Origin: a virus
Taxonomy: Duplodnaviria; Caudoviricetes
Strand: one strand, 5' to 3'
IMG/VR virus record: IMGVR_UViG_3300025671_000081
Span: 1 to 55,016 of that record
Length of the DNA stretch: 55,016 nt
The notes beneath the pieces are model-generated. The model ran no database searches. It saw nothing but the letters and a program-made list of their open reading frames with translations, and was not told the DNA's origin. A program made the position numbers and the translations under genes. Of the stretch, positions 6,974-50,442 are shown in pieces (within the stretch, counting starts at the first letter, position 1; each line of letters begins with the position of its first letter).

Positions 6974-7165
6974 ATGAACCCATTTAAACGATTTTATTAC
7001 ATTGTTCGGATAGCTATCGCAATGACCAGACTAAAACGTTGGTCAGTGTCATGCAAAGACGAATTTAAGCGTGAACTATGCCGGACTTTATATCTTACGT
7101 CGTGTTTTACATACAACAGCGTTAAATACAGTTGGATGCCCAAGGCTACACCGGCGACAAAATAA
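6974..7165 (+). CDS. cassette D hypothetical protein
   Basis: GGAGGA RBS then ATG 6974; TAA stop in the R box. Confidence 0.75.
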   Translation: MNPFKRFYYIVRIAIAMTRLKRWSVSCKDEFKRELCRTLYLTSCFTYNSVKYSWMPKATPATK

Positions 7166-7214
7166 CGCCGGAATCAGGCGCGAGGCACGAGTCGCACTGA
7201 TCCGTGTGTTATTG
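7160..7214 (-). repeat. attC-like site 5 (anchor class)
   Basis: Minus strand TAACACACGGATCAGTGCGACTCGTGCCTCGCGCCTGATTCCGGCGTTA; body identical to site 10. Confidence 0.85.
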
Positions 7215-9815: not shown

Positions 9816-10016
9816 GTGATTATGAGCAGAGAGATGCTAACGAATCGTTTGGAAAAAATTGCCGGTAGTAACGTGATTATGTCAAACGACAAAGAGAAAG
9901 CGGCGCTGTGTAAGTGTGTCAACTATCTGGCCACGCAGCTACAGATTCTTGCGAATGACTTGGATGAAAGTCCTGCAAATGTTTTTAAGCTGGCGTCCGA
10001 GATACTGGAAGAATAA
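9816..10016 (+). CDS. cassette I hypothetical protein
   Basis: GAGGTG RBS (start may be ATG 9822); stop in R box. Confidence 0.75.
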   Translation: MIMSREMLTNRLEKIAGSNVIMSNDKEKAALCKCVNYLATQLQILANDLDESPANVFKLASEILEE

Positions 10017-10065
10017 CGCCGGAATCAGGCGCGAGGCACGAGTCGCACTGATCCGTGTGTTATTG
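10011..10065 (-). repeat. attC-like site 10 (anchor class)
   Basis: Body identical to site 5. Confidence 0.85.
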
Positions 10066-10329: not shown

Positions 10330-10332
10330 TTC

Positions 10333-11529: not shown

Positions 11530-11853
11530 GTGACAGACCAAGAAAAAATAGTTTCAGCAATCAAGCATATACCTACGGATGAGATAGCTGCGCTGCCGTA
11601 CTTCAAGAACCGTGGGAAGAATTTCATAGCCCGTGGATTGGCGAATGATAAGACCGGGGAGCGTGAGCGCGCATTCAGTGACGTCATAAAGGAATTTCAC
11701 GAGGACGGCAACAGTCTCTGCCTTATTGTCGGTGAAGATGAAGCCGAATTGCGCGGGGCTTTTACCTTGTTTCAGTGGCTAACAACAAATGTCGGAAGCG
11801 TCGTTCTTGATAGGGCGTTACGGTCTACAGGAAAGAAGGTTGTTGACGCATAA
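11530..11853 (+). CDS. cassette J hypothetical protein
   Basis: GGGAGGA RBS then GTG 11530; stop in R box. Confidence 0.78.
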   Translation: MTDQEKIVSAIKHIPTDEIAALPYFKNRGKNFIARGLANDKTGERERAFSDVIKEFHEDGNSLCLIVGEDEAELRGAFTLFQWLTTNVGSVVLDRALRSTGKKVVDA

Positions 11854-11898
11854 CGCCGGAATCACGGGCCGCAGGTCCCGTGAAACCGTGTGTTATTG
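11848..11898 (-). repeat. attC-like site 12 (anchor class)
   Basis: Minus strand TAACACACGGTTTCACGGGACCTGCGGCCCGTGATTCCGGCGTTA. Confidence 0.85.
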
Positions 11899-12193: not shown

Positions 12194-12200
12194 AGGAATT

Positions 12201-12796: not shown

Positions 12797-12854
12797 ACAT
12801 AACCCGGCGTTTAACTGTGAACGCCAGTGAATCATTTATAACGCATTGTTATGC
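12797..12854 (-). repeat. attC-like site 13
   Basis: Near identical to sites 8 and 11. Confidence 0.9.
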
Positions 12855-12871
12855 GTTGGGAGGATATTTAA

Positions 12872-13075
12872 GTGACAGATGAAAATTCATTCGTGATTCG
12901 TCTTTTACACGAGAAAAACGAGTTGCATTGCAGAATGACACTACTAAATCGTTTCAATCATTCTGATAAATTTTTAGAGCTGAGCGAAGAAGAGCAAGTG
13001 CTACTACTGGAACAACACAGAGCAATGCAGAAATATTACGGGATACTCAACAAGCGCTGCGCCCTGTACGCATAA
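12872..13075 (+). CDS. cassette K small helical phage protein (crAss001_48-like)
   Basis: RL..EK.EL..R...L..F...DKF..L..EEQ.LL..Q..AM..Y..IL..R pattern. Confidence 0.75.
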   Translation: MTDENSFVIRLLHEKNELHCRMTLLNRFNHSDKFLELSEEEQVLLLEQHRAMQKYYGILNKRCALYA

Positions 13076-13127
13076 CGCCGGAGTCGCGCGTCGAGGTACG
13101 AGATCGCCGCGCACCCGTGTGTTATTT
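13070..13127 (-). repeat. attC-like site 14 (anchor class)
   Basis: Minus strand TAACACACGGGTGCGCGGCGATCTCGTACCTCGACGCGCGACTCCGGCGTTA. Confidence 0.82.
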
Positions 13128-14398: not shown

Positions 14399-17300
14399 CT
14401 TTCAGCTTCGGCGATACACGCTCAATCAAGTGATTCCTGCGCAGCTTCAGCAAGTCGATCTGACGTCGCTTTTCTTCTGCGCTGAGACTTCCGTTTTTCT
14501 CAATGGCCTTAATCCGGTTGCGGATCTCCTGTAGCCGTCGGTTCACCTGATTCATTAACTTGCGCATACCAAGCAGGTCGCGGTTTTCCCTCAAGGTGTC
14601 GGCGTACTCTTCCATGTCGCCCTCTTCTCTGTACTTCCTCATATCCGCATAGAGGCGGTCAGCCTTACGCAGTGAGTCATAGAAAAGCTCTGCGTCTTTT
14701 GTGTAAGACGGCCGAGAAGCATCACGATAGAAGCGTTTGATCGGCTGATACTCTGTCAGGAAAACAGACGGTTTTTCTGTATCGCTGAACTGACGAACAG
14801 CTACATCAGGAATGGCCGACGCCCATGCGCCAACCTGTCCGAGGTAGCCACCGATTAAGAAGTCCATCTGAACCGGTGACAGCGCGTAGTTTGAATCTTC
14901 GCCGAACACGCCCGTGGTCACCTTGCTCAGCATCTTGGCGACGCCGGTTGTGCCCTCATTGACCCGATTACTTTTGCTCAGTCGGGACTGCCCCATGGTT
15001 TCAATCTGACGCCCGGTGAACGAGTCCTTGTTCGCGTAGACATCCAGCGAAGGCTGAAACATCTGAGGCACAGCACTGAATGCAAACGTACCTGTCAGCA
15101 TGTGCCACATACGCTCACGGAACAGTTTGCCGGTAGCCTCGTCGTTCATGCCTTGCTCAAGTAATCGCTCAGTTACCGTTGCGATGGCGCCAACCTCAAA
15201 CGGTTTAGGGATGGTAATGACGTGATCCGTTTCCGGAATACGGAACCACCAGTAGGAATCCTTCAGCCAGTCTGGGGCTTTACGGTATTCCTCATCGTCC
15301 TGGTTATGTGCGAACAGAGTCATAGTGGCAACCGAAAGCGCGCCAACCACAGCAGAGAATCTGGCTGCCGCCTTTTTCTCTTCAATGCTGGTTTCGACAT
15401 TACCAACCCCAAGCATCTGCGCCACTACCTTCGTCGATGGCTTCACGCCAGAGCGATACAGCTTATCCAGGCCCTGCAAGCGAGCATTCAGGAATGGTAC
15501 AACGTCGATCAGAAAGCGAACCGCAGGCCACGCGCCATGCGCAGAGAAGTCCATCAGGTCGCGAGCCTGAAACGCTGCGTACATGGTCCCCTTTCCCGCA
15601 TCCTCAGCCTGCTTGAATGCAGCCGCACGATTCACGTTCTCAAGGCTGTTATTCACATCCATCCATCTATCCCAGCCAGCCTGTAAAGGCTTCAGCCCCA
15701 GAGACAGAAGCTGTTTAGGGTCCTTGATAACCTTTGCCCGGCGCATCTGGCCATCGATCTGATACCGGATAGAGTCAGCATCCTCGCCATAAACGTGACC
15801 GAAGCTGAACGCACCGCCAGACGCCATCAGCCGCGCTCGTTCATATCCGTGACGATCAAGCAGACCGAACGATTTGAGACCCTGCGCAATGTTGCTGGCC
15901 GCGTTCTTGCTCATGTCGGTAACCGCCACTGCACTCATAGAGTCCCGCAGAAGGTTGGCGACAACGAACTGAGGCGTACTGGTGGTCAGGTTGGTGAAAG
16001 TTCTTTTAAACCAGCGCATAGCCGACATGGCATAGCCGTTCATGCCGGTGTGGTTCAGACTGGTCAGCGACGAATAGACCATAGGGTCAGAAATGTCGTA
16101 CCACTCTTTCACGCCATTACGCAGTATGAAGGTGCTTTGCTTTTTGTCCCGAGCTGCCTCGACAGTTTTCTCTGCCGCGCCTAACTCCACCGCGTTATCA
16201 ATGCCCTGCTTCGCTGCCATGTTCTTCATGCTGGCATCAACCAGGTGGTGTAAGTTCATCAATGTGTTTTGCAGGAGGTCATTCAGGTTCTGAGTGCCAC
16301 CCTTCAGCTTCTTATAAGCCTGCTGGCGAGAAAGCCCGCCCATAACCCTTGGGCCTGTAGTGTCGTCGTTGTCTTCGTCCAGTCGGTAAAAGGGAACGTA
16401 AAACTCGTTCGCCCACATTTCCCGGTTTTCGCTGGTGATAATTCCTGACTCTTCAGCAATCGCCAGAACGTCGTCCCGGTACTGCTGGAACTCTTTGAAC
16501 ACCTTTTCATACAGAACGTTACGGTTACCGCCGTTTTTCAATTCGCCGCGGTTAAGCCCTTTCAGCGCCTGAATGTCTTCCGGAGTGAACAGATTTTCAC
16601 GACCTTCGGCCATCAGCTTTTCGCCGCGGTTACCGGCGATCCACCCCATGAAGCGCTCAATCTCAGCGGACGAGCCCAGTTTATTCAGGGTATAAATCAG
16701 GCCGTTAGTGTCTTTCTTCACATCGACGATACCGTCTTTGTTCATAAAGATACGGCCTGCGTTCATCATCGCAGACACAGCACCAGAGGCGGCATTGCTC
16801 ATTTTGGCGCGAGCCCAGGCAGAACGAGTGATGTTTTCTTCACTGGTGATATTGCCGTCAAGCAACTTCTTATCCAGCTCCATCAATCCAGCATAGCGAT
16901 CAACCAGACCCTGACGGACCTTTAAGCGCCAGCCGTCCATAACGCCGCGCACTTTTTCGGCGGCAGTTTCTACCGGGCCTTTCGGCCCGATTTTAGAGAG
17001 GGCTGATTTCTCGGCATCGTTAAGGCTGGAGTCTTCCGCAAGGTCGTCGGATAAGCGGGCGAGAGTTCCACCATCCTGACCAGACGAACCATTCTCACGA
17101 AGGTGACGACGCCCTTTTTCAATCAGCGCCAGAGTGTCTGTATCCGTCCAGTCGATATCAGGATTGAATTTGCGGATCAGGTCGCGCAGGGCAGCAATAG
17201 CACGCTGTACCAGCCCCATCTTTTTACCTTTCTCGGCAAGGTGGGCAATGTACTCCAGAACAGCAATACGACGCTCATCTGGGTTGTCATAGTCAAATGC

Positions 17301-20300
17301 GTAGCGATCAATGTCTTTATTGATAACGCTATGGCCAGCCCGATAATAAATATCGTCCAGCATTTCCAGATAGGCTTTACCACCCAGCTTTTCGTTCTGC
17401 TTCAGGTAGTTGATAACGCCTCCATGGCCGACTACCTCATGCAGGAATACACGCTTGGCGTGATATTGGTCCCGGATGTTTCCAGCGACGATGTAGGTTT
17501 TTCCGGTCTTGATATCGTAGGCACCGTCGGCGCTGTCGAAGTATGCACCAAGGTCAATCTTGACGCGCCCGGGCAGATCCAGACTTGTCTCCACCACTTC
17601 AACGGAATCCATGCCTTCAGCCATATTCTCAAGCCATCCACGCACCTGCTTGGCGGTGCTTCGGGTTTGTACTCGGGATTTTCCGCTGAACTGGCTGGCG
17701 AGTGAGCGGATCTCTGCGCTCACGTCGTCGGAGAGGGATGCAAGGATGGTCTTGTCACCATCCTTTCTCGCCTCAATCGTCTCAAATATTTCATCAAAGG
17801 CTTTCTCTACAGGAAGAAGTTCTGACTCTCTGAGATACGGATACCTCTCTGCGTCTCTCGCAAACTCAGACTCTGGTGTCACATTCGCCAGAAAATCGTT
17901 CCTGTTTCCCTTTTTAGCAAGAGAGGCAATTACGTAGTTCTCAAAGGAGCGAGCGGCCAGCTCAATAATCTGTGACCAATACGCATTAGGCTTGCTATCA
18001 ATCTTCAAAGACCGCTGTCTTACGGGTGAAGAATTTAGAACGCTTGCCAGATCAGCAAACTTCTTCTCCACTTCCGGCCTCACCCCCTCGGGATGGCTCT
18101 TATCTCTTTCCCATTCTGAATCAGCAAAATCCCCATTATTCCCATAATTTTTCTGGTATCGCTCTAATTCAAACTTAGTTAGCCTTGCGCCTCTGATTTT
18201 CTTATTGACCATCATCGGCTCAGGTCTGAAAGTAATATAATTACCCTGTCCTTTGGCGGGCTCCTGCCCCCTTTTTCTCCAAAAGTAGTTATCGAGAGCA
18301 TGGAACCACTCATGGGCCAGCGAACCTGAACCCTGAGTTTTTGTCAGGTTGATCACCATCGACCAGGGCTCGTAATGAGCAGCGGCACGCCCGCCCCTAC
18401 CTCTTGAGCCAAACCCGATACCAAGCTGTCCACCCAGCCCTATAGCCTCTGGCGGGATATTCAGAGTGTCCGCAAGATCCATAAACGCATCATACGCGGC
18501 GTTGATAAGCCCTTGTCGCTCCCTTCCTCCCTTTCCTTGCTTGACCCAATTACCAAACTCAGCCCCTCGGATTGAGAACCTTTCGATAAACTCTTGAGGT
18601 GATACGTCCTTTCCTGATCTCCAATCTTCACCGACACGGGCCTTATTTTTTGAGCCTCGTGTATCTGCCTTTGATACGTTGTCCCGCGCCTTTACTGATT
18701 CCCATGCATTTACCAAATCATCATATCCGTCAATGATGTATGACCTAGCCTCGCCCAGGGTGTCGAACGTCTTGAGTGCGCGGCGTTCGCGATCACCTTT
18801 CTTGTTGATATAGAACTTCTTCCCGCCACCGGATGATCGTACTTCAAACTTCATCGACCGTTCTTTAGTCGCGGGCTCCCCAAGATACTCAGATACAGGG
18901 GCAGTAAGGTCAGAAACTGACTCCATGCCGTAGAAAGCCTTTCGTTTACCATCGATTTCTACGTCATACCAGCTTCCAGGAATCATCTCACCGCTTTCGT
19001 CACGATACTTCCCGCTCGCTCTTGATACCCTTTTTATTCTGTCCCACTGCTTCCTATCGACGGCAGACAAAAGCTCCACCTTGTCCGCAAGATTTCTCAG
19101 GGCACCTCCCTTTTCGCGCATCACCGAAATAAGTGATTCAGCCCCTTCGCCGGAAGCAAGCTCTAACAACTCACGAACAGACTTGACTGAATCGACCCAG
19201 CGCTTGAGGCGACCCCTTACCCGTGGCTTGTTCGGTATCTCATCTCGAACCACCTTGTACAGTGCTGCCTGCTTAACGTCTTCAATTTTGTTAATTTCCC
19301 CTTTCGGGAACAACTGAGAGAGCGTTGAATCCGCTATACCCTGATCATCCAAATCGGAAAGTCTTTCGGTCGCAGTGCGAAGCTCATCTTTTCTTGCGCC
19401 ACCCAACTTCTCACCAACATCATCGATGTCAGAATCAGGGGTGGAAAGGGCAGAATCAACCTCCACATCAGGCCCAAAGTCATCATTCACCTCAGTAGCG
19501 CTTGCCCGTGGCGCATCAGCAATGTCAGAGTTCCCAGCCTCCGCTGCGCCCTCTGGTACCGGATGAAGCTCGAAACCACCTTCTACTTCTACCAGCTCGT
19601 AACCTGGGTGCTTCTTCAGGGCTTTACGGGCTGCGCCTTTGTTCTTGTAAGGGTTCCCAGCGCTGTTGCGGATGATGGGCTTATCGTCTTTCTCTGGAGC
19701 TGCCTGTTCAGCCTGATCTGGCTCGCCATACTCTTCACGCAAAGAAGCCCATGCCTGACGGTTCACGCCTTCTGGCGAATCGCTGTTCAGCTCATTGAAC
19801 TGCTCAAATGACAGTGCCGACTGCGCTCGATCTACGTCAGTCTCATATTGATCTTCAATGCGCTGCATTGCGGATTCGTAGCCAGGCGAAGAAGGCTTCA
19901 GCCCTTCAGCTCTGGCCATCTTTTTCAGATAAGCCTTGCGAGTGGCTGTAAGAATTTCAGGAAGGTCAGGGGCTGGTTTTTGTGCGGGCTTTGATTTTTG
20001 TTTGCTTTCCTTTTTCGGACCCTCAGAACGAGAAACCCCGGCAGGTGCCGGGGTTTTTTCTGGTTCATTACCTTGGGAGCTTTCTGGATTATCTGGGGAG
20101 TTATTTCGCGCCTCTTGAAGCAAATCACTCTGTCCAGCCGCTGCAGCCTGATCTGCCTCAGTATCTGACCCCGCCAAGGCAAACGAATCCACCTCTGCGT
20201 CTGCCTTTGCTTTCTGCTGAGATTTCCGTTCAGTTTCTGAATTTACCTTCTCGGCCTGCTGGCGCTCTTCTTCCTTCTGGCGAAGGTCTTCTTCCGTGTA

Positions 20301-23102
20301 GGACGTTAAGAGTTCTTCTTCGGCTTCCGGTTCGCTTTCGCTTTTGACCCACTCTGGCTCTTCACCTCGGTCGGCGGATTCTTTTTCCAGTGCTCGTTGA
20401 TTTGCAGCGCGTACAATACTTGCGGGTGTAATTTCTTGTCCATTCTTATGCGCCTCGGTCGCAACAAATAATCTCAGGCTGAACTCTACAGGATCGTCAC
20501 CGAATTGCTTGGCAACTTCAGTAACAACATTCTCAGGCAGCCCGGAATCCAGAGCTTCGCGAATGTCATCAGCAAGTGCATGCCCTACACCGTTACCGCC
20601 CGGCACGGCCTCATAGTCAGTATCAGTAAAACGCTGATCGCCAGAGGATGCAATACGCTTTATCGCATCAGAGTATCGCTGAGGCACGGGATCAGAGTCA
20701 GCAAATCCCGCCTCTTGCGGCGTCATTTCACCGCGCATTACCTTGCGGAATTTGACCAGGTCTTCACGTTCTGGTCTGGCTTGAGTTCGAGCGTATTCAT
20801 TACGATTTTCGGTAATATGATCCAGAGCGTAACGAACGGCACGGGCCTGACCTCTGCCAAGCGGTCGCCCCTTCAGAGCCTGATCAATCGTCTTCTTCAG
20901 TCCCTTCACACCCAGACGCTTTACATTATCCGGAGCGTCCTGAAACCATTTTGGGTTTTGTGACGGCGTGCGCTTAACAATCTTGTCGTTACTGTCTCGG
21001 ACGTATGTTACCCCGCCACCAGGAACGAGATCACCGGCCATATTCTCAAGGCCAGAGCGGAAGTAAGAGCGCAGGAGACGGCCATCATCAAGCCCTTTCG
21101 GCAACTTGTGCTTGCGGATCTGATCTTTCACTCGGTCAGACAATTCGTCAGCCCGATCACCGCCAGCAAAATCAATGCCGCGCTCCGGCTCATAATCCTG
21201 AATGGCCAGCCCTGACTGATCACGCTCCTGGCGCTCAAAATCTATAGGCGCATTAGGCCCCGGCAGCTCTTCAACGTCAACAACTGGCGGCACCGGCTCC
21301 TGATCTATAGTGATCTCATCGACAGGAATTTCTTCAATGTCTTCAGGGCGCATTCTGGCTGGCGCATTGCCAGGGTCTTGCCCTTGCTGCTCAGTCATTG
21401 CCCGTTCGATTTGCTGGCGAGCCGCTTTGGCTTCTTCTGTGGTGCCCATGTAGTACGGTGCATCCACAGAGTCAGGAATCAGCGTTGACGGATCGGGCTC
21501 ATAGTCAGAAACTTCAGGCTGAAGGTTATTAACCCGAACTCTATCCATTTCATCGTAGCTTTCCTGAGTCCGCTCCAGATACTCACCGATAGCAACATAC
21601 TCTGCCGGAAGCTGAGATTTCGGCTCAGAGGCTTCTGCGTCACGCTGCCCCATCTGGGTAACTTCGCGATAAATCTTCAGTGCGCGCTCATTGAAGCGCT
21701 TAGCTGATTCGGTATCACCTTCGTTAGCGAACTCTTCCGCCATCTGGAAATTACGCTTAGCTGCACGCAATCGGACAGCCTCATCCTCAAAGCCCTGCTG
21801 TTCGGCGATTCTGATATCGTCATCAATGCCACGATATTGACCACGCTCCGCCTTGACCTGCTCTACTGCCTGTTCCAACGGCGGCATAGGCTGCACCTGA
21901 GCGTATGACTCCTGTGCATTCTCTTCTTGAGCTGGTTCGCCCTCAGTCAACTCGCTGGTCTGCTCCTGAATGGACGGCTTCTCTCTTGGAGTGCCTTTCG
22001 TGAGCGCCCCCATAACGCCACCCATGCCGGCGCCAAGAACACCCTCATTCAGTGCATTGGTTGCAACGCCTTCCATCAAGTCGCGATCAGTGTCCACGCC
22101 CTCATTCACCATGGCGCGGTTAATGTTGAATTGCTCCATACCGCCCTGAGCCGCTTCGGGGATACCTTGACCAATCGCCTGCATTCCGGCATTCGTCAGT
22201 CGCTTACCAGTGCCAACGCCTCGAATGAGATTGTCGATGTAACGACCGCCGATGGCATCCAGCGTCAGGTTTGCGGTGATAGTAAGAGGGTCAGCCTGAA
22301 CCGACGTAGCAACACGCTCTGCCAGCGCCTTGGTCGCGGTTTTCCGCAATTCACTGACCGTTGCATTAGGGTTCTGCTGATGCAGCTGGTAGTACAGCTT
22401 TCGGAATTCATTCGATTCATCAAGATCAGAATCCTCAAGATTCATAATCTCATCACGAACCTGAATACCCATCTGACCGCCGGTAATGCCAGCACCTGCG
22501 AGCGCCTGACCAGTAACACCAGCGCCAGAGCGAATCATGCTTTTGGCATATTCCTGAGCCGCTTCTTTGGTCATGCCTTTGGCCATGCCGCGCTCGATCA
22601 GGTTTTTCGTAACAACCTTCGCGCCAACTTTGGCTACCGCACCGGTAAAACCAAAACCAGTTACAACCTGACCGGCCAACTGACCAGCCATATTGGAAAA
22701 CTGCAGACCTATCGATTCAGGGTCTGACCAGGCTTCGCCAAATTGTACGTCGCCGTTTTCGTCCTCTGAGAAAAACTGCTTACCCATCGCCTCGCGGCCA
22801 GAGTCAGACATCTGGTCAATCTGACCTTCTGCCCAGTTCTGAGTCGCGTCACGCAATTTCCCAGCGGTTTCTGAGCCGGTGATCTGGTAAACAGTTTCCG
22901 CCATGCCAGCGGCAGACTGGCCTGCCCCCATCTGGAAGACATCGACGGCGTCACCACCGAAACCCTGCTCGCCATCTTCAGCAATGCGCTGAGCTTCAAC
23001 GTCTGCCGCGGTTTTTCTGTTGGAGAATCCGCCTGACATGGGCGGTGGATTTTGATAGGCGATGTCGTATAGGGAAGGAGACTTACTTTTGGTATCCGTC
23101 AT
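14385..23102 (-). CDS. giant internal virion/DNA-ejection polyvalent protein (LPD1-like, metallopeptidase-like and LPD38-like domains)
   Basis: 2905 aa at end of virion operon; RGAEFGNWV..AAAHYEP..INLTK..SLAHEWFHALD; HEVVGHGG; C-terminal IPKPFEVG. Confidence 0.8.
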   Translation of the reverse strand: MTDTKSKSPSLYDIAYQNPPPMSGGFSNRKTAADVEAQRIAEDGEQGFGGDAVDVFQMGAGQSAAGMAETVYQITGSETAGKLRDATQNWAEGQIDQMSDSGREAMGKQFFSEDENGDVQFGEAWSDPESIGLQFSNMAGQLAGQVVTGFGFTGAVAKVGAKVVTKNLIERGMAKGMTKEAAQEYAKSMIRSGAGVTGQALAGAGITGGQMGIQVRDEIMNLEDSDLDESNEFRKLYYQLHQQNPNATVSELRKTATKALAERVATSVQADPLTITANLTLDAIGGRYIDNLIRGVGTGKRLTNAGMQAIGQGIPEAAQGGMEQFNINRAMVNEGVDTDRDLMEGVATNALNEGVLGAGMGGVMGALTKGTPREKPSIQEQTSELTEGEPAQEENAQESYAQVQPMPPLEQAVEQVKAERGQYRGIDDDIRIAEQQGFEDEAVRLRAAKRNFQMAEEFANEGDTESAKRFNERALKIYREVTQMGQRDAEASEPKSQLPAEYVAIGEYLERTQESYDEMDRVRVNNLQPEVSDYEPDPSTLIPDSVDAPYYMGTTEEAKAARQQIERAMTEQQGQDPGNAPARMRPEDIEEIPVDEITIDQEPVPPVVDVEELPGPNAPIDFERQERDQSGLAIQDYEPERGIDFAGGDRADELSDRVKDQIRKHKLPKGLDDGRLLRSYFRSGLENMAGDLVPGGGVTYVRDSNDKIVKRTPSQNPKWFQDAPDNVKRLGVKGLKKTIDQALKGRPLGRGQARAVRYALDHITENRNEYARTQARPEREDLVKFRKVMRGEMTPQEAGFADSDPVPQRYSDAIKRIASSGDQRFTDTDYEAVPGGNGVGHALADDIREALDSGLPENVVTEVAKQFGDDPVEFSLRLFVATEAHKNGQEITPASIVRAANQRALEKESADRGEEPEWVKSESEPEAEEELLTSYTEEDLRQKEEERQQAEKVNSETERKSQQKAKADAEVDSFALAGSDTEADQAAAAGQSDLLQEARNNSPDNPESSQGNEPEKTPAPAGVSRSEGPKKESKQKSKPAQKPAPDLPEILTATRKAYLKKMARAEGLKPSSPGYESAMQRIEDQYETDVDRAQSALSFEQFNELNSDSPEGVNRQAWASLREEYGEPDQAEQAAPEKDDKPIIRNSAGNPYKNKGAARKALKKHPGYELVEVEGGFELHPVPEGAAEAGNSDIADAPRASATEVNDDFGPDVEVDSALSTPDSDIDDVGEKLGGARKDELRTATERLSDLDDQGIADSTLSQLFPKGEINKIEDVKQAALYKVVRDEIPNKPRVRGRLKRWVDSVKSVRELLELASGEGAESLISVMREKGGALRNLADKVELLSAVDRKQWDRIKRVSRASGKYRDESGEMIPGSWYDVEIDGKRKAFYGMESVSDLTAPVSEYLGEPATKERSMKFEVRSSGGGKKFYINKKGDRERRALKTFDTLGEARSYIIDGYDDLVNAWESVKARDNVSKADTRGSKNKARVGEDWRSGKDVSPQEFIERFSIRGAEFGNWVKQGKGGRERQGLINAAYDAFMDLADTLNIPPEAIGLGGQLGIGFGSRGRGGRAAAHYEPWSMVINLTKTQGSGSLAHEWFHALDNYFWRKRGQEPAKGQGNYITFRPEPMMVNKKIRGARLTKFELERYQKNYGNNGDFADSEWERDKSHPEGVRPEVEKKFADLASVLNSSPVRQRSLKIDSKPNAYWSQIIELAARSFENYVIASLAKKGNRNDFLANVTPESEFARDAERYPYLRESELLPVEKAFDEIFETIEARKDGDKTILASLSDDVSAEIRSLASQFSGKSRVQTRSTAKQVRGWLENMAEGMDSVEVVETSLDLPGRVKIDLGAYFDSADGAYDIKTGKTYIVAGNIRDQYHAKRVFLHEVVGHGGVINYLKQNEKLGGKAYLEMLDDIYYRAGHSVINKDIDRYAFDYDNPDERRIAVLEYIAHLAEKGKKMGLVQRAIAALRDLIRKFNPDIDWTDTDTLALIEKGRRHLRENGSSGQDGGTLARLSDDLAEDSSLNDAEKSALSKIGPKGPVETAAEKVRGVMDGWRLKVRQGLVDRYAGLMELDKKLLDGNITSEENITRSAWARAKMSNAASGAVSAMMNAGRIFMNKDGIVDVKKDTNGLIYTLNKLGSSAEIERFMGWIAGNRGEKLMAEGRENLFTPEDIQALKGLNRGELKNGGNRNVLYEKVFKEFQQYRDDVLAIAEESGIITSENREMWANEFYVPFYRLDEDNDDTTGPRVMGGLSRQQAYKKLKGGTQNLNDLLQNTLMNLHHLVDASMKNMAAKQGIDNAVELGAAEKTVEAARDKKQSTFILRNGVKEWYDISDPMVYSSLTSLNHTGMNGYAMSAMRWFKRTFTNLTTSTPQFVVANLLRDSMSAVAVTDMSKNAASNIAQGLKSFGLLDRHGYERARLMASGGAFSFGHVYGEDADSIRYQIDGQMRRAKVIKDPKQLLSLGLKPLQAGWDRWMDVNNSLENVNRAAAFKQAEDAGKGTMYAAFQARDLMDFSAHGAWPAVRFLIDVVPFLNARLQGLDKLYRSGVKPSTKVVAQMLGVGNVETSIEEKKAAARFSAVVGALSVATMTLFAHNQDDEEYRKAPDWLKDSYWWFRIPETDHVITIPKPFEVGAIATVTERLLEQGMNDEATGKLFRERMWHMLTGTFAFSAVPQMFQPSLDVYANKDSFTGRQIETMGQSRLSKSNRVNEGTTGVAKMLSKVTTGVFGEDSNYALSPVQMDFLIGGYLGQVGAWASAIPDVAVRQFSDTEKPSVFLTEYQPIKRFYRDASRPSYTKDAELFYDSLRKADRLYADMRKYREEGDMEEYADTLRENRDLLGMRKLMNQVNRRLQEIRNRIKAIEKNGSLSAEEKRRQIDLLKLRRNHLIERVSPKLKAIDA

Positions 23103-26470: not shown

Positions 26471-26483
26471 AACAATCACCCAC

Positions 26484-26517
26484 AAAAAAGCCCGGCACAG
26501 TCTCCTGGCCGGGCTTT
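26484..26517 (-). terminator. rho-independent terminator
   Basis: GCCCGGC stem plus T6 on minus strand. Confidence 0.75.
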
Positions 26518-34804: not shown

Positions 34805-34816
34805 AATGGCCTCCAT

Positions 34817-34841
34817 AAAAAAGCCCGGCACAGAGCCGGGC
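34817..34841 (-). terminator. rho-independent terminator
   Basis: GCCCGGC stem plus T6. Confidence 0.75.
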
Positions 34842-43700: not shown

Positions 43701-44035
43701 GCGAACGCCTTGTAAATTCTTAGAGCTGTGCCGATTGTCACGCACATTACACAGACTGTTAATCCCATTGCGATTTTAGCGACGGGGCCAGCCTCGTACA
43801 TGGTTTCGTTTTTGTCTGCCTGCCAAGCCTTACGGCAGTGGTTGGAACCATCGACCGGCTTGAACGCATAGTTTATTACGCGCTCCTGAATAACCCAGAA
43901 ACGCTCAGATCCGCGCGCAGCGAAATATCCAGTGCGAGCCGAAATAGTTGAATCTGGATTGCCACCGAATACCGAATTACCAAACTGATCGAGGGACAAC
44001 AGTATGTTGTAAACATACGAATTACGCTCAGTCAT
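43697..44035 (-). CDS. hypothetical phage membrane-associated protein
   Basis: N.L.SLDQ.GN...GG.PD.TISAR, NHC motif; GGAGG RBS. Confidence 0.7.
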   Translation of the reverse strand: MTERNSYVYNILLSLDQFGNSVFGGNPDSTISARTGYFAARGSERFWVIQERVINYAFKPVDGSNHCRKAWQADKNETMYEAGPVAKIAMGLTVCVMCVTIGTALRIYKAFA

Positions 44036-44529
44036 ACCCCCTCCTGATCGTTTCCCGGTTGTTCCGCTGAATACTCGCTCAAATTGTCGAGCGACCACTC
44101 TGAGCCAAGCACCAGCTCAATCGCTAGGTTCGCGGCGTCTGTCATTTCCTCAGGCACAGATGCAGCAAGGGTCGCGTTATCGAACTCGCTGCTCTGGAGC
44201 TTGCGCATAAACGTGATAGTAAAATCGATCTTTTCCCACTCAGTGAATAATCGGCGCGAGATCTCGTTACCGGATTCATCAACTCCGCCGAGCAGCGGCT
44301 TAAATAACTGATACTCACGAAGAGTTAAATACCCCAGCGGGGTAAACGACTCGCCATCGTCATCGCTGAACTTTTTGCCGCGATAGATGTGAATCTCAAA
44401 TGTCTGGCCACCCTGAGTGACATCCAGCACAGATAGCGGCGAGTGGTTTGCGTAATCAGAATGGATACCGGGAATAACAACAGAGACCATTTGATGATCG
44501 GGAAGATCTGCTGCATTAATCAGGCTCAT
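44032..44529 (-). CDS. hypothetical protein
   Basis: 165-aa coupled ORF. Confidence 0.7.
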   Translation of the reverse strand: MSLINAADLPDHQMVSVVIPGIHSDYANHSPLSVLDVTQGGQTFEIHIYRGKKFSDDDGESFTPLGYLTLREYQLFKPLLGGVDESGNEISRRLFTEWEKIDFTITFMRKLQSSEFDNATLAASVPEEMTDAANLAIELVLGSEWSLDNLSEYSAEQPGNDQEGV

Positions 44530-45242
44530 AGCGCGCCCTCTGCGTATTCGATGACTCTATCTCCGTCACCCACCCAGAAATCATCGCTAGGTTTTTTAGT
44601 GACTGTCTCCCAGTCTCCGGGCACATAGTTAATAATCGTGCCATTGTTGCCGCCTACGGTATCACGCAGCACACCACCGTTGTCATCGAATGGCCAGTAG
44701 TTTGTTGTAACGCCCGACTGCTTTATCTCGATGCTGAAAACATTTCCGCTATAGTTAGGAATTCCGGTATTGCTGCTCCACTTCGTGAAAAATGAATCTA
44801 GCACAATCGGGCCAGAATACGATGCCGTCGCCAGCAGAGTGCCGTTTGCGTAAAAACTGACCGTGCTACCTGATTTAATATACTCAAATTTGTGAATTAC
44901 TCCCGTCGCTGGAACCTCCGATAGAACTGTATTGGACGGAAATCCATAACCAGAAATCCCAGTCCCATTCGTTAAAAACCGAGATTCGTTTTCGTTATCA
45001 TTCGTCGTATCAGCGAAAAACCAGCCACCACTCGCACCAGGCCATTTAGCATAAAACTCAATCTCGCAATCGCCAGCGACTGTTATCGTGCTGTCTAACG
45101 ATACATGTTGAGTGGCGTTGAGGTTCATAATTGCGCGGGTAATAGCACTCACTCGTCGATAGAACCGATCTCCCGGATCTAACGGATTGCGCCAGGGCGA
45201 TAGGATGCCGCTCTTACGAATGCCGCTTTGCGCTTTAATCAC
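44526..45242 (-). CDS. LamG/concanavalin-like domain protein
   Basis: Beta-rich; FY.NG, YSGNVFSIEI, YWPFDD..G..RD..GGNNGT. Confidence 0.6.
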   Translation of the reverse strand: MIKAQSGIRKSGILSPWRNPLDPGDRFYRRVSAITRAIMNLNATQHVSLDSTITVAGDCEIEFYAKWPGASGGWFFADTTNDNENESRFLTNGTGISGYGFPSNTVLSEVPATGVIHKFEYIKSGSTVSFYANGTLLATASYSGPIVLDSFFTKWSSNTGIPNYSGNVFSIEIKQSGVTTNYWPFDDNGGVLRDTVGGNNGTIINYVPGDWETVTKKPSDDFWVGDGDRVIEYAEGAL

Positions 45243-45535
45243 TGACTGCTCACGCTCACTGAGTATTCTGCGCCGGTATTCGTTGGCGTCAGAACAATAA
45301 ATGCGAGAGAGCCAGCTTCGACTTGGATCATGCCGTTTTCGGGGATGACGTTTTCGCCGTCGGCGCCAGGATTGCGAGCGTCCGCAACGTCAAAGCCTTT
45401 CGGCACTACAGTAAGCGTAACGTCGCCGGTCGAGCCTTTGATGTGAACGGTGTGCAGCGACACGGAATCAATGACAGGAATGTTTTGCACTCCAGTGAAC
45501 GGCCCGAAGACCGCGCTCTTAGTAATATCAGCCAT
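45239..45535 (-). CDS. hypothetical beta-rich protein
   Basis: 98-aa coupled ORF. Confidence 0.65.
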   Translation of the reverse strand: MADITKSAVFGPFTGVQNIPVIDSVSLHTVHIKGSTGDVTLTVVPKGFDVADARNPGADGENVIPENGMIQVEAGSLAFIVLTPTNTGAEYSVSVSSQ

Positions 45536-45773
45536 TCGTCCCGTCTCCCCGAATCTGTCGATCAGTCAGCACCGCAATATCTTTATCATGCTGGCTGATT
45601 ATCGTCGCGTGCTCATCAAGCCGCGTCTGATGTCGAATGTGCTGCTCATCGTGCACTGACAACTTAAACGAGATCATGCCGTAGATTTTACCAAGCCCGA
45701 TCAGCTGCACAGCAAAAGTTGCGAACAGTCCGACCACCGCGATCAGTATGTTCATGTCGACGTTTTCAAGCAT
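45528..45773 (-). CDS. single-TM coiled-coil protein (holin/antiholin-like), first late gene
   Basis: N-terminal TM helix; start placed after tR'-like terminator. Confidence 0.55.
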   Translation of the reverse strand: MLENVDMNILIAVVGLFATFAVQLIGLGKIYGMISFKLSVHDEQHIRHQTRLDEHATIISQHDKDIAVLTDRQIRGDGTNG

Positions 45774-45792
45774 GATTAAAAATCCCAGACGC

Positions 45793-45825
45793 AAAAAAGC
45801 CCGGATCAGATTTAACTGCCGGGCT
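45793..45825 (-). terminator. tR'-like terminator
   Basis: GCCCGG stem plus T6 just downstream of the promoter. Confidence 0.7.
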
Positions 45826-45857
45826 GCTTTAAGGTCACTGACGACCAATTTACTGAT

Positions 45858-45886
45858 TTTATACCCTAGCTGCGCAGGAGTGTCAA
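45858..45886 (-). promoter_or_regulatory. sigma70 late promoter (pR'-like)
   Basis: TTGACA-17 bp-TATAAA on minus strand. Confidence 0.8.
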
Positions 45887-45926
45887 CAATTATCAACGCT
45901 GGATGTTAATTCAGGGGCAGTTGGTG

Positions 45927-46466
45927 TTAGAACGGAATGCCGTCATCAAAGTCATCGAAGCTGTTACTCGGCGCTGGCATCTGCTGCGCTGGAGCTTGCT
46001 GAGGCGCCGAACCTTGCTGTGGTTGCTGATACTGAGGGTTTGACTGTCCAGCCTGCTGTTGAGGTGCTGACGCTTGCTGAGGCTGCGCCATCTGTGCGCC
46101 TGGTTGCTGATAGCCACCCTGATCATTCTGTTGGCGGCTATCCAACATCATCATTTCATTGCAGATGATCTCAGTGGTGTAGCGCTTAATGCCGTCCTTC
46201 TCCCACTCTCGAGTACGCAGCTTGCCTTCGAAGTAGGCGCGCGAACCTTTCTTCAGGTACTGCTGGCAAATTTCAGCCAGACGACCGTATACAGTTAGTC
46301 GGTGCCACTCAGTCTGTTCTACCTTCTGGCCGGTTGCCTTGTCGTTGTAACTTTCATCTGTTGCCAGTGACAGGTTGGCCACTGCATTGCCATTGGGCAT
46401 ATAACGAACTTCCGGGTCACGCCCAAGAGTACCGATCAGAGTTACTTTGTTAATTGCTCTTGCCAT
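45927..46466 (-). CDS. ssb: single-stranded DNA-binding protein
   Basis: [22 protein letters not shown]; C-terminal DFDDGIPF. Confidence 0.96.
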
Positions 46467-46582
46467 TTCTACTCACCTTTCGTATTTGTCCCGGCTCTGC
46501 CAGGACGGTTATTGTCATGTCTCCGCTGCTATATCGTCAGCCGGTGACAGTACGCCGCCCGGCTGCTTTAGCATGTTCAGCT

Positions 46583-47140
46583 TCACGGCTCAAAACTCAG
46601 AACTTCTGAAACAAGAATTGACTGTTCAACTGCTCTGTCGTCAGCTAGGAAGCTGTACTCATAACAGTGTACTGCCAGAGTCTCTTTCCACAACCTCTTA
46701 GACGCCTCCAGCGACTGGGTCGGGGTTTCAGATAAAACTCTATCGACGTACATTGCATGCTTGTCTGCAAAGTTTCCATGCCCATCCTGATTCCCTATTG
46801 CTCGAAACTGGTTCGCGCATTCTATGAGCATGTCTTTTGCGCCAGACGCAGCACCCCGCAACCGCTCCACCTGCGCGGCTAGTTCGTTAGCCTTCTGGTT
46901 AAACAGCCATTCGGCACGATCCCAGGCGGCGTTTACTATCTTCTGCTTGTCCGCCGGTAGTCCATCCAAACCCCAGCTAGCGTTAAAATCTTCCCGCGTC
47001 TGTGTGTACGGTACTTTTTCTAGTCGTTCGACTTTTGCGGCTAGTTCGCTGCTTTCGCGGGTTAACTCTTCTATTGTCGCTTCATGCTTAACACAAAGCT
47101 CTGACAGTGTTTTTTGGCTTACTAATGTGTATTTATTCAT
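46583..47140 (-). CDS. hypothetical protein
   Basis: 185-aa ORF, internal ELAAxVERL repeat. Confidence 0.7.
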   Translation of the reverse strand: MNKYTLVSQKTLSELCVKHEATIEELTRESSELAAKVERLEKVPYTQTREDFNASWGLDGLPADKQKIVNAAWDRAEWLFNQKANELAAQVERLRGAASGAKDMLIECANQFRAIGNQDGHGNFADKHAMYVDRVLSETPTQSLEASKRLWKETLAVHCYEYSFLADDRAVEQSILVSEVLSFEP

Positions 47141-47154
47141 ACCCTACCCTCTGT

Positions 47155-47203
47155 TAATAACACACGCCAGCACGAGACAAAGCTCGTGTGTGCGGCGTTA
47201 TTG
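47155..47203 (+). repeat. solitary attC-like site 15 (anchor class)
   Basis: AATAACACACGCCAGCACGAGACAAAGCTCGTGTGTGCGGCGTTATT; GTTA overlaps stop of minus-strand ORF. Confidence 0.72.
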
Positions 47204-47458
47204 CTCTCCGCTCAAATCTTCCGCGTAAACCTGGATCATTCCTTTCATCTGAATCTCTTCCTTGAGCCAGTGGTAATGCTTCAGGTGCCACCAGTCGCCT
47301 GTTGTGATGAACTTCCGTCCACGCTCTACCCCTCTCAGCTTTAGCGGGGTATTGAGAAACGTCCATTCACTGCGTCTGAGATCCAGCTCCTTGGCCAGCT
47401 CTTGTGCCTGTTTCAGCTCGCCAGCGAGAATAAATAGCTTATCGTTAGTCACTTGCAC
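47198..47458 (-). CDS. hypothetical protein
   Basis: 86-aa ORF in nin-like operon. Confidence 0.65.
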   Translation of the reverse strand: MQVTNDKLFILAGELKQAQELAKELDLRRSEWTFLNTPLKLRGVERGRKFITTGDWWHLKHYHWLKEEIQMKGMIQVYAEDLSGEQ

Positions 47459-47694
47459 GCCCTTTTTTCGGAATCGATCAACCAGTTGTTCTTAATACCC
47501 AGCAACCAACTGTACGTATAAAACCCACTTAGCAGGAGTATTCCCCACTGCTCCGCCGTGTACGCTGAGTAAAACCAGAATGGCTGGCCGCACAACCCAA
47601 ACAGGCAGGCGTACTTCTTCCATTCTTCTCGACTTTGCTGAGTGAGCCATATCGCTATGACTCCAGTTACTGCAATTGCTATCTGATCAAGCAT
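47449..47694 (-). CDS. small membrane protein
   Basis: Three TM helices; GL.GQPFW..QWG motif. Confidence 0.7.
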   Translation of the reverse strand: MLDQIAIAVTGVIAIWLTQQSREEWKKYACLFGLCGQPFWFYSAYTAEQWGILLLSGFYTYSWLLGIKNNWLIDSEKRACK

Positions 47695-47954
47695 TACTGA
47701 TTGCTCCGCCCGTCAATTGCTCGCATTACCTCGGCCTTCATTGCCGGGTGCATCACAATCCTTCTGGTTTCGTTACACACATAAAACTCGCGGCTAGGAA
47801 CCTGGTCGATAACGACTTTTGTGGCCCGGAGTGGACGCCAAGGGCGCGACAGAAGCCGCTCACGCCACGTTCTGGTCACTGTCTTCTCTTCTGGCTGAGT
47901 GAGCGCCGGGTTTTCTATCACTGTGTAGCCGCATAAAGGGTCATTCAGGATCAT
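47694..47954 (-). CDS. hypothetical protein
   Basis: RTWRERL.SRPWRP, IVMHP motifs. Confidence 0.65.
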   Translation of the reverse strand: MILNDPLCGYTVIENPALTQPEEKTVTRTWRERLLSRPWRPLRATKVVIDQVPSREFYVCNETRRIVMHPAMKAEVMRAIDGRSNQ

Positions 47955-48321
47955 AGCTTGAGTCTCTCAGCACGTTCGTTTCGACAAAACACGGAATGCA
48001 ATATGTTTTGCCATCTGCGCATTCAGCTCTCTCGGCCCGCACTTCTTCTCGACACTGCTCGCATACGGTAGGGTTGCAGGCAATCTGGTTAGGTATAAAC
48101 CGCAACACTGGCCCAGAAGAGGAATGAATCTTCGCCTTCAGGCTCTCGATCTCTTTCGGGGAAAGCTTGTCTGGATTCGCCACTATCGGCTTTTTGTCAA
48201 AAAGCAGCCGAGCCGTCCGATAATTGATTTCGGCCATAAGATCGCGATTTGGCTGAGCTATAAACTGTTCAACCGACTCCCTCAAAATATCGATATGCTC
48301 CTGACGTAATTCGCTAGTCAT
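47941..48321 (-). CDS. hypothetical protein with C-terminal zinc finger
   Basis: CEQC...CIPC. Confidence 0.6.
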   Translation of the reverse strand: MTSELRQEHIDILRESVEQFIAQPNRDLMAEINYRTARLLFDKKPIVANPDKLSPKEIESLKAKIHSSSGPVLRFIPNQIACNPTVCEQCREEVRAERAECADGKTYCIPCFVETNVLRDSSYDPE

Positions 48322-49049
48322 ACCGCCTCCCGGTTACGTTCGTTTCTGACGTTTTCCCAGTACCGCTCCAGCCACGCCTCAATCGGAGCCAGGCACAGGT
48401 TATCCACAGTCTTTATCTCATCCATAATGAGATTCCAGAGCGGAGCCCACTGGCGTGACCAGTTGCGCGTCTCGATTCGATTGCAACGACCGGTTGCCAT
48501 TAACCGTCCCAACTCCTGAACCTGACTGGTATTCAATGAGAGGCTTCTGACGGTTCCTCCCTCGATCGCGGGACTAATGGCTTCCCGGTAATGGCAGAGC
48601 GCGCAGTAGATCAGATCCAGAAGTGCGGCTTGGCGCTCTATCGGCATATTCGGGAACTGGGCTTTCATTTTTTTCTGACACACACGATACAGGTGGTTCT
48701 GAGCCTGCTTGAACTCCAGCTCAGTCGCTTGGAAGTCGGGCATATACATGATGTTGCCGAAGGCCCGCTCGTGGTGTTTCAGTTTTCGGTTTAGGTCAGA
48801 ACGTATCTGCATCTTCTGCTGATCACACCATATCTGGTTCAGATTGCTACTGAATCCACCGAAGTCGGGATTCGTGACCTTGGTTTTGCTCCAGTCACCA
48901 GACACTGCAGAAGATTGATTCTGCTTAATGCCCAGCTTGGCAGTCTCAACAGCTCCAGCCAGCGATGAATCAGAGCCGTAGAAATAAATCCAGTGCCACA
49001 GATTGCGAGTGGTCAGAGGCTTTGGCAAATTGCGCGTCAGATTAGTCAA
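48318..49049 (-). CDS. putative Q-like late antiterminator
   Basis: Follows NinG; pR'/tR' structure downstream; call mainly positional. Confidence 0.45.
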   Translation of the reverse strand: MTNLTRNLPKPLTTRNLWHWIYFYGSDSSLAGAVETAKLGIKQNQSSAVSGDWSKTKVTNPDFGGFSSNLNQIWCDQQKMQIRSDLNRKLKHHERAFGNIMYMPDFQATELEFKQAQNHLYRVCQKKMKAQFPNMPIERQAALLDLIYCALCHYREAISPAIEGGTVRSLSLNTSQVQELGRLMATGRCNRIETRNWSRQWAPLWNLIMDEIKTVDNLCLAPIEAWLERYWENVRNERNREAV

Positions 49050-49734
49050 TGGATGGCTCCTTTAAGTCGCTCAGCATTTTTTTAAATTTGCCTTCCGTTG
49101 CCTTAAAGTCTTCGATCGTAAACTTCGCTGGTTCGTGAGGGCCTTCAAGCCACTCCACATTCTCTATTCCAATCCTCCGCACAAGTTCCACTCGGTATGC
49201 AGCTGTAACCTGATGATTCTTGCGGGCATAATTTCCTGCACCGCCATTACACGACTTGCACTGACGGTGCGCGTTCATCGGCTCGAATCGCAACTCTGGG
49301 TGGCTGCCTACGCTCAGGTAGTGACCGCAGTCCCATGCTCCGCCGGGCTTCCACCCCTCGCTCTGCTCAACCTCGCTCTCAGTGCGACCGCAACTCACGC
49401 AAGGCATGCCCGCGTCTCGCGCCCGTATGTAAGCGTTAAAATGCTTTTGAGCGACCTTTTGACGATAATTGCGATCATTATCACGCAGTTTGTCTTTCGC
49501 CTTTTTGGTCTTGGCTCGATATTCACGCTCTTTTTTCTTGGCCTCCTTCGCCATCACCCGCTTAACGTAACAATCCAACCCCTGACGAAGGCGGTCGCGC
49601 TCAGCCTGCATGTGCTCTTCTGCATAGCTGTTCATGCACTCGAACGAATGGAATTTCTTCTTGTGCGGAATGCTCTCTGACTTACTTGCTGGCGGCAGAG
49701 CTTCGCCGCATCCGCATTTACAGCGACGAGTCAT
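49042..49734 (-). CDS. ninG: NinG/Rap recombination endonuclease
   Basis: AQ..FNAYIR.RD...PC.SCG, WDCGHY.SVGS.PELRF...N.H.QC..CN. Confidence 0.9.
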   Translation of the reverse strand: MTRRCKCGCGEALPPASKSESIPHKKKFHSFECMNSYAEEHMQAERDRLRQGLDCYVKRVMAKEAKKKEREYRAKTKKAKDKLRDNDRNYRQKVAQKHFNAYIRARDAGMPCVSCGRTESEVEQSEGWKPGGAWDCGHYLSVGSHPELRFEPMNAHRQCKSCNGGAGNYARKNHQVTAAYRVELVRRIGIENVEWLEGPHEPAKFTIEDFKATEGKFKKMLSDLKEPSID

Positions 49735-49894
49735 TGTTGAGCTCCTCTTGTCTGCGAATCGCCTTTTGTTGATTCACAGCATGACGACTTGGCATCCGTA
49801 GCGGGGCTGGCTTGAGACGAAGGATCAATACCAAGACGGAAGCAAGAATCAAAACAACAATGCCGCATGCTATATTGAAGCTTAACTCGCTCAC
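49718..49894 (-). CDS. small membrane protein
   Basis: GGAGG RBS, GTG start, one TM helix. Confidence 0.5.
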   Translation of the reverse strand: MSELSFNIACGIVVLILASVLVLILRLKPAPLRMPSRHAVNQQKAIRRQEELNNDSSL

Positions 49895-50442
49895 GCCGCC
49901 TCCCCGCGATTGCTCGCTATCCACTCGCGCTCAGCCGCTGCTATTTCCTCAGCGGTTGCTGGCCACTGAACGCCAAGCTCAACACCATAAGCATAAATAA
50001 ACTCGATGAAGTCAGAGCCTTCTGCCACCGAAAAACCTGTCGTGCTCGGACGAACAGTAACCATGCGTCCAGAACCGTCCATAGCCGGAACAATCTGACC
50101 AGGCTTACGCAGCGGCTCACCAGCTAAGGCGCGCTCCTGCTCAAACTGATCAACAAGCAATGCTTTCCAGATTTCCGGCTTGTACTTCCGGCGACGATTT
50201 CGACCGAAGAAATAAACGATGCGGCCTGGGTCTGAATCCGGGTGCTTAGTCTCAAAGGTAACCTGATCCGAAATAACCGCGATCAACTTGTGATACAGCT
50301 TTTCTTGCTCACGGCTGCGCGAAGGCCGGCGCACCAGAACGGAAATAGGACCGCCAGCCAAGGTATCAAGCATGAATTGCTTCAGCGCAGTGAACTTCTG
50401 CCGCGCCGTATTATCAGGATGAATCGTGATCTCTTTTGCCAT
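49891..50442 (-). CDS. ninB: NinB/Orf-like recombination protein
   Basis: RS.EQ..YH..I..IS.QV, WK.LL, STT.FS..E.SDFIE.I.A.G. Confidence 0.75.
   Translation of the reverse strand: MAKEITIHPDNTARQKFTALKQFMLDTLAGGPISVLVRRPSRSREQEKLYHKLIAVISDQVTFETKHPDSDPGRIVYFFGRNRRRKYKPEIWKALLVDQFEQERALAGEPLRKPGQIVPAMDGSGRMVTVRPSTTGFSVAEGSDFIEFIYAYGVELGVQWPATAEEIAAAEREWIASNRGEAA

Follow-up and report, generated by a model that had tools for sequence, protein, structure and literature searches.

The window analyzed here is the whole of an IMG/VR virus record of 55016 bp, with a completeness of 100% according to CheckV, and its gene content is that of a temperate lambdoid podovirus. Genes lie on the plus strand at 1–14 kb and on the minus strand at 44–54 kb, and the main features are collected in Table 1. 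The portal protein is 39–42% identical to the portals of Vibrio phage douglas 12A4 and of Stx2-converting phages, and a megablast search with positions 46000–48500 against GenBank phages gave no nucleotide match. As the early-right operon contains a P-like loader, NinB, NinG and a single-stranded DNA-binding protein (SSB), the original prediction described the neighborhood of the 47-kb element fairly when it spoke of a nin-like operon. The structural block ends in a single ORF of 2905 aa (14385–23102). The two xis-int modules are arranged in tandem, with an identical copy of the element ahead of each, and are separated by small ORFs and a DNA methyltransferase gene (9248–9751); the two integrases are 97% identical (364/375 residues), and the doubling may be real or may have arisen when two variants were collapsed into one assembly. 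An attP site adjoins the integrase genes at about 11900–12200, with ATTGCCAA arm-type repeats at 11920–11950 and 12185–12192. Inside it lies the 3' part of a tRNA gene on the minus strand (about 12008–12068; Rfam tRNA match of 22.8 bits, below threshold), and a full tRNA was not found by ARAGORN.

Read on the plus strand, the element at 47 kb begins with AATAAC (47156–47161), continues with the arms CACGAG (47171–47176) and CTCGTG (47183–47188) around ACAAAG, and ends with GGCGTTATT at 47194–47202. Its sense strand is the minus strand, on which AATAAC is followed by an apical hairpin and then by GTGTTATT. The lower stem contains a bulged U and a G.U pair that never varies; CACGAG and CTCGTG pair to form the apical stem. 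The sense RNA folds with −23.7 kcal/mol (z = −1.4) and 20 out of 200 shuffled sequences are equally stable, so that fold stability alone is unexceptional and the evidence for the element consists of repetition and covariation. Upstream lies an ORF of 86 aa for which no PHROG, Pfam or NCBIfam match was obtained and whose homologue in the related contig L018 is 93% identical. The downstream ORF of 185 aa belongs to a mosaic coiled-coil family that is present in four of the five complete phages compared (window; G001, 14138–14524; G003, 8606–9112; G009, 20761–21159). Only the motifs NELAAQVERLRG and ETPAQSLEAVK are common to its members, and residues 85–185 of the window protein are 100% identical to the L018 protein, the N-terminal parts of the two being different. 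This family was considered as a partner protein of the element and discarded, as one of the five complete phages lacks it and as in G001 and G003 it does not lie next to the element.

Table 1. Positions of the element copies and of neighboring genes in the window.
Feature	Position	Strand	Remarks
Element under review	47156..47202	− (sense)	47 bp
Element copy 1	7161..7213	+	closes 69-aa ORF; 57 nt upstream of xis
Element copy 2	10012..10064	+	identical to copy 1; closes unrelated 66-aa ORF; 57 nt upstream of second xis
Element copy 3	11850..11897	+	closes 122-aa ORF; abuts attP arm repeats
Element copy 4	13072..13126	+	between convergent genes; TAA for 67-aa ORF (+)
86-aa ORF, upstream of element	47198–47458	−	TAA stop 47200–47198 within first bases of element
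185-aa ORF, downstream of element	46583–47140	−	starts 14 nt past element, behind GAGGG ribosome-binding site
RecT and RecE	8–2431	+	
Two xis-int modules	7272–8609, 10123–11460	+	
Structural genes (terminase, portal, major head protein, internal virion protein, 2905-aa ORF)	14.4–41 kb	−	
Early-right operon, P-like loader	52.5 kb	−	
NinB	49891–50442	−	early-right operon
NinG	49042–49734	−	early-right operon
SSB	45927–46466	−	early-right operon

The joint end pattern AATAACACACG-N15-45-GGCGTTAT, which reads on the minus strand for the four copies at 7–13 kb and on the plus strand at 47 kb, has five matches in the 55016 bp of the window and none in the reversed control. These matches span 7162–7213, 10013–10064, 11850–11897, 13072–13126 and 47156–47201. 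A looser pattern in the sense direction, ATAAM-N28-55-GTGTTAT, recovers the same five sites where 0.13 are expected, and five matches were not reached in any of 100 shuffled sequences. Taken singly, either end motif is weak evidence: TAACACACG with at most one mismatch occurs 9 times (7.9 expected) and GGCGTTA 17 times (5.3 expected). In all five window copies the TAA within ATAAC is the stop codon of the upstream ORF (ends at 7165, 10016, 11853, 13075 and 47198), and copy 4 additionally supplies a TAA on the minus strand to a convergent ORF of 97 aa (13122–13415). Given the strands of the genes at 44–54 kb and at 1–14 kb, every one of the five copies is in sense to its genes, which makes their orientation relative to transcription uniform. 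Thus, the proposals that the 47-kb palindrome is a fifth member of a set with shared ends, that its orientation is fixed relative to transcription and that it overlaps the stop codon of the 86-aa ORF were all confirmed, the first of them also by a covariance model score of 63.3 bits. A general preference for TAAC at stop codons was rejected as an explanation: 15 of 82 ORF calls end in TAAC, five of these being the elements and at least one belonging to another repeat family. The latter starts with TAACCCGGCG(T/C)TTA and occurs in the window at 6650–6670, 9177–9256, 11458–11537 and 12800–12879 and in L018 at about 8730–8758; it begins at or beside a stop codon and continues with one or two hairpins and a GGGAGGA ribosome-binding site, and its ATAAC start and a GGCGTT/AACGCC motif recur in the element studied here. 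Small ORFs are also preceded by a third kind of short repeat, at 6116–6152, 6681–6717 and 6933–6969, in which a GCGCC...GGCGC hairpin immediately adjoins the GGGAGGA ribosome-binding site on its upstream side.

Alignment of ten distinct copies defines a family of stem-loops whose ends are constant and whose middle varies with covariation. The consensus hairpin has 19 pairs, 96.3% of the cells being paired, and 7 of the 19 pairs are changed on both sides. A covariation score of 0.311 was obtained, compared to 0.128 in shuffled alignments; none of 500 shuffles reached it and all slid registers gave 0.069 or less. The lower stem is invariant, with 8 pairs that include the G.U pair (columns 8:52 of the alignment, unchanged in 10 of 10 copies), followed by the bulged U and by 3–4 further pairs. 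The upper stem varies with compensation, as is seen when CACGAG/CTCGTG in the window is compared with CACGGG/CCCGTG in L013. With a covariance model built from these ten copies, the 47-kb copy has an E value of about 1e-17. Exact-ended matches were found in 13 other IMG/VR contigs, 11 of which are evident family members, the matches in the remaining two (L014 and L015) having only 21–22 bits by the covariance model and being taken as chance. The model finds 1–4 copies in each of ten related virus records, and prophages also carry the family; more divergent members keep ATAA(C/A)...GTGTTAT and often an apical CGAGGNACGAG motif. In the NinG relatives L021–L035 no strong copy was detected by the model. 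A scan of genome contigs for the end pattern gave 92 stretches, and among the 80 listed ones, which were scored with the model, two loci exceed 60 bits, both in one metagenome-assembled genome (MAG); the remaining scored stretches have 31 bits or less and were treated as chance. In this MAG of about 4 Mb the two copies are 3 kb apart, around a prophage xis-int, and a match was obtained in only 3 of the 86 genomes of the MAG's family (65 candidates scored per genome); the element is therefore not a host-wide repeat. Rfam release 15 yielded no match at the element, neither at the gathering threshold nor at E ≤ 10. Word searches of the open-access literature returned no description of this element, which, coming from word searches only, is weak evidence of novelty.

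The family is asymmetric with respect to strand and translation. In 18 of 19 distinct copies the sense RNA is more stable than the antisense RNA, and the sense folds contain 32 G.U pairs, compared to 16 in the antisense folds. Among 21 copies examined, the TAA of the element closes an ORF of 48–141 aa in 17 cases (16 of them distinct, since L013 and L050 have the same ORF), in three cases the ORF stops a few bases before the element, and for one weak copy no score was possible. All 14 copies in the five complete genomes are on the strand of the ORF that ends there. The upstream ORFs are unrelated to each other, apart from one shared N-terminus and the L013/L050 duplicate. Many copies are located within operons, with the next start codon 2–65 nt further on, and L011 has one within its head-gene operon. 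Others lie where convergent genes meet (copy 4, L012) or at operon ends beside attP (copy 3, L067 and L149).

A comparison of this spot in related phages, which the original prediction had proposed in the search for inserts, did reveal one. L018 and the metagenome contig L163 possess the 86-aa gene, an extra ORF of 90 aa, an identical element and a homologous downstream gene, and the 47-kb spot is therefore variable. In L018 the homologue of the 86-aa gene and the 90-aa ORF both end in ATAAC, which means that the window differs by a clean indel of ~297 bp between ATAAC pentamers, the left one of which in L018 forms part of the TAACCCGGCG... repeat outside the element family. A second indel, of 273 bp, distinguishes L011 from L007 and ends exactly at the ATAAC boundary. 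At their far ends both indels are devoid of a family copy and show microhomology of 1–5 nt only. G009 and L013 have an unrelated ORF of 71 aa, then a variant element and then a related downstream gene. In L166, a 90-aa ORF homologue of 71% identity is followed by a divergent family-like hairpin (13.2 bits, E = 0.17). G001 has a homologous ribosome-binding site and start without an element, and L162, the one further relative found with a profile of the 185-aa family, lacks the element as well, which shows that the element is dispensable at the downstream gene. Locus searches with single flanking proteins detected one relative contig only, and L018 was the sole match when the end of the 86-aa ORF was probed with 20 nt.

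Wherever relatives were compared, the ATAAC end is the precise point at which homology is lost. Eleven pairs of elements are 100% identical; in each of them the upstream 80-mers are unrelated (50–60% identity, which equals background), and the downstream 80-mers are either 89–96% identical or unrelated (≤62%). Copy 4 and the copies in L006, L007 and L011 are identical over 55 nt, with both flanks unrelated. These results clearly show that the end of the element is a real breakpoint of mosaicism and a junction of gene swapping. Judging from the flanks compared, the element moves with its downstream flank or alone, and never with the upstream ORF.

The original prediction had interpreted the palindrome as an attC-type docking site of the anchor kind. 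According to an excerpt of PMC3053210, attC sites are bounded by an RYYYAAC inverse core and a GTTRRRY core and have a size of 57–141 bp. The plus-strand ends of the 47-kb element, TAATAAC and GTTATTG, fit these cores at AAC, at GTT and at one further position only, and members of the family, which extend over 46–55 bp from ATAAC to GTTATT, are below this size range. In the antisense fold an A.C mismatch lies two positions from a single bulged A, and there is no T-N6-G extrahelical pair; in the sense fold of the 47-kb element there is one bulged U. Both Int proteins of the window have PF09003, the lambda arm-binding domain, together with PF00589, neither has an NCBIfam match at E ≤ 0.01, and with the tRNA-derived attP beside them these domains mark them as lambda-type, tRNA-targeting integrases. 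No PF00589 recombinase was detected in four of the five complete element-bearing phages (G001, G003, G008 and G009), no Y1/RAYT-type transposase (PF01797) in any of the five, and no protein family is common to all five at a blastp threshold of E < 1e-4, and for this reason the reader of the element would be a host factor, or there would be nothing specific that reads it. Instead of an array of promoterless ORFs with one attC apiece, 2–6 ORFs lie between the window copies and include xis, int and attP. An element tied to its downstream flank, or moving alone, is the opposite of what is expected from the attC of a cassette. Two further resemblances were considered and dropped: the antisense loop resembles the boxB of P22 and is on the wrong strand for it, and some flanks resemble the XerC arm of dif, a feature that is not common to all copies.

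Contigs assembled from four metatranscriptome runs were placed on positions 44000–50000. Over 45.9–50 kb the cover is fragmentary, with a depth of 0–5; none of the contigs shown bridges 47165–47231, and the contig ends near the element (47140 and 47165) do not coincide. A well-covered contig (depth 10–16) runs leftwards into the late genes and ends at 45838 in three of the four runs and at 45770 in the fourth, near a canonical terminator on the minus strand (45805–45784). The layout at 45784–45838, as seen from the contigs only, hints at an arrangement like lambda pR'/tR', in which a late promoter is combined with an early terminator. The motif AAAAAAGCCCGG occurs at 26480–26500, 34813–34833 and 45789–45809, inside and after the structural operon, and corresponds on the minus strand to canonical terminators with a GC-stem and T6.

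Several explanations can be considered for a hairpin that is at the same time a mosaic junction. That it would be an attC-like folded single-strand site at which a tyrosine recombinase docks cassettes, the 47-kb copy being empty, is very improbable. Such a site would share with the element an imperfect palindrome with conserved inverted AAC...GTT ends and a variable middle, an unpaired base and a mismatch in the antisense fold, a position at ORF 3' ends, often over the stop codon, and the coincidence with gene-content junctions; the break of homology at the GTTAT end is located where an attC crossover would lie, there are relatives with an extra ORF at the 47-kb spot, and attC sites have been reported in phages (PMC9892861, in excerpt). 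However, core sites, size, extrahelical bases, type of integrase, array structure and linkage all fail, only one of the five complete carriers has a PF00589 recombinase, an IntI is missing, and the strand that folds better is the sense strand and not the one chosen in the original prediction. Of the unoccupied docking locus postulated there, the variability of the spot was borne out by L018 and L163, whereas the attC docking was not, the extra ORF in L018 not being bracketed by two family members. A related idea, that the hairpin is a recombination site cut at ATAAC/GTTAT by a host enzyme or an unrecognized enzyme, giving integron-like cassettes without an integron integrase, is considered improbable; if it were true, small ORFs would be inserted, deleted and exchanged at stop codons across unrelated phages of one host group, and the 47-kb copy would be one docking point. 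Similarly doubtful is a small non-autonomous mobile palindrome of the MITE or REP kind, mobilized in trans by a host enzyme with a preference for stop codons. The sharply defined inverted ends ATAAC...GTTAT, the identical 55-nt copies between unrelated flanks (copy 4 versus L006, L007 and L011) and the polymorphic presence at the same gene start (G001 versus the window and G009) argue for it; opposed to this, no target-site duplication is visible in the flanks, a Y1/RAYT-type transposase was found in none of the five complete phages, the host-like MAG has just two copies, both in a prophage, and the divergence is old and accompanied by compensatory changes instead of consisting of near-identical recent copies. 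Somewhat less unlikely is a DNA-level recombination linker similar to the PeSL cassettes of T4-type phages, at whose copies upstream genes are exchanged or deleted, any RNA effect being secondary; copies shared by co-infecting phages would then serve as short portable homologies or as replication-stalling hairpins. Consistent with it are the unrelated upstream 80-mers in 11/11 pairs of identical elements, the ~297-bp (L018 versus window) and 273-bp (L011 versus L007) indels that abut the ATAAC end exactly, the presence of RecT, RecE, NinB and NinG in the window and the documented shuffling by PeSLs (PMC2839356 and PMC4122927, in excerpt). Both indels nevertheless lack a family copy at the far end, which is unlike a PeSL-PeSL exchange, the shared arm is only about 10–12 nt long, and strand bias, invariant G.U pair and strict sense orientation would not be needed in a patch of duplex homology.

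Among explanations at the RNA level, a simple intrinsic terminator of the nin type, acting in both directions and overcome by phage antitermination, seems a poor candidate. Terminators are present in the nin region of lambda, the genes around copy 4 and around the L012 copy converge, copy 3, L067 and L149 are at operon ends beside attP, the AAUAA upstream is reminiscent of the A-tract of a bidirectional terminator and the UUAUU downstream of its U-tract, and a consensus scan touches parts of copies 1, 2 and 4. Against this, the same scan does not call the 47-kb copy a terminator, and with a terminator scoring formula the copies score −4.7 to −17.3, compared to +1.3 to +47.6 for four canonical GC-stem and T6 terminators, the genome's own GCCCGG...CCGGGC-T6 terminators being positive. 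The tail is UUAUU only and is itself paired within the stem, the conserved CGCCGG/CCGUGUG lower stem would be unneeded for termination, and the stop codon lies in the 5' arm, so that a coupled ribosome would block formation of the hairpin. The best explanation, to which we give about an even chance, is a hairpin in the sense mRNA that is read by the host and serves as punctuation between cistrons, by protecting the 3' end, by being processed or by terminating transcription in a leaky manner. Strand bias, covariation, the fixed tie to translation, host dependence, suitable positions and the restriction of the element to few sites in the MAG, where it is no host-wide repeat, argue for such punctuation. 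On the other side, the same hairpin is possible in single-stranded DNA, where G.T pairs are tolerated; an RNA function alone does not explain the exact breaks at the ATAAC end or the identical copies between unrelated flanks, and the element can be dispensed with at the downstream gene, as in G001 and L162.

If cistrons are punctuated in this manner, the conserved stem-loop would act in the polycistronic mRNA of the sense strand and would be read by host machinery. As the element begins at the UAA of the upstream cistron, the terminating ribosome would melt the base of the stem, and the stem would re-form behind the ribosome. The predicted stem of about 19–21 bp consists of a conserved lower part, with the G.U pair and the bulged U, and a variable upper part, and its 19–21 pairs, interrupted by a bulge and an internal loop, would agree with an RNase III site. 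It might obstruct 3' exonucleases or be processed by a double-strand RNase of the RNase III type, any termination being leaky at most, and punctuation of this kind would determine the dosage of the genes before and after it relative to each other. As a side effect, the DNA of the element would be a preferred breakpoint for replacement or deletion of the upstream gene. The breakpoints themselves are observed, and we infer that they are caused by recombination between copies or by stalling of replication at the base of the hairpin.

In temperate phages, turnover of small accessory genes is rapid, and there is continuing debate about the mechanism that exchanges them with such clean junctions. 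The element, a compact hairpin with covariation, contains the stop codon of whichever gene precedes it, occurs in unrelated phage types and coincides with very sharp breaks of homology, which makes it a tractable case for asking whether signals that punctuate transcripts double as joints of phage mosaicism. The covariance model can be used to annotate the element in freshwater phage metagenomes, and the case also cautions that a palindromic architecture alone is insufficient for calling an attC site.

Among described systems, the PeSLs, which are conserved intergenic stem-loop cassettes of T4-type phages that contain an early promoter (PMC2839356 and PMC4122927, in excerpt), are the closest analogue for the breakpoint role. 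Like them, the element is a short conserved intergenic stem-loop among small accessory genes and lies at indels and replacements between related phages; unlike them, it lacks a promoter, embeds a stop codon and shows one-ended indels, and its carriers are temperate lambdoid and other phages that are not T4-like. Consensus scans detected no promoter-like site at any copy of the element. REP and BIME sequences are palindromes of about 35–55 nt that are found where cistrons end and follow the direction of transcription; for them, protection of mRNA 3' ends, attenuation and, when near a stop codon, effects on the translation of the upstream gene have been proposed. The element is likewise palindromic, placed at cistron 3' ends and orientated with transcription, whereas it is borne by phages with 1–5 copies per genome, is not dispersed in hosts and is unaccompanied by a RAYT/Y1 transposase. 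The nin terminators and the sib/tI hairpin of lambda and the intercistronic RNase III sites of T7 are intercistronic hairpins in early operons or beside int and attP that control read-through or mRNA decay through host factors. The element has the same intercistronic placement, in early operons and beside int/attP, and differs in having no proper U-tract and in a lower-stem sequence that is conserved across unrelated phages. Taken together, the element is akin to the known intergenic stem-loop repeats of phages.
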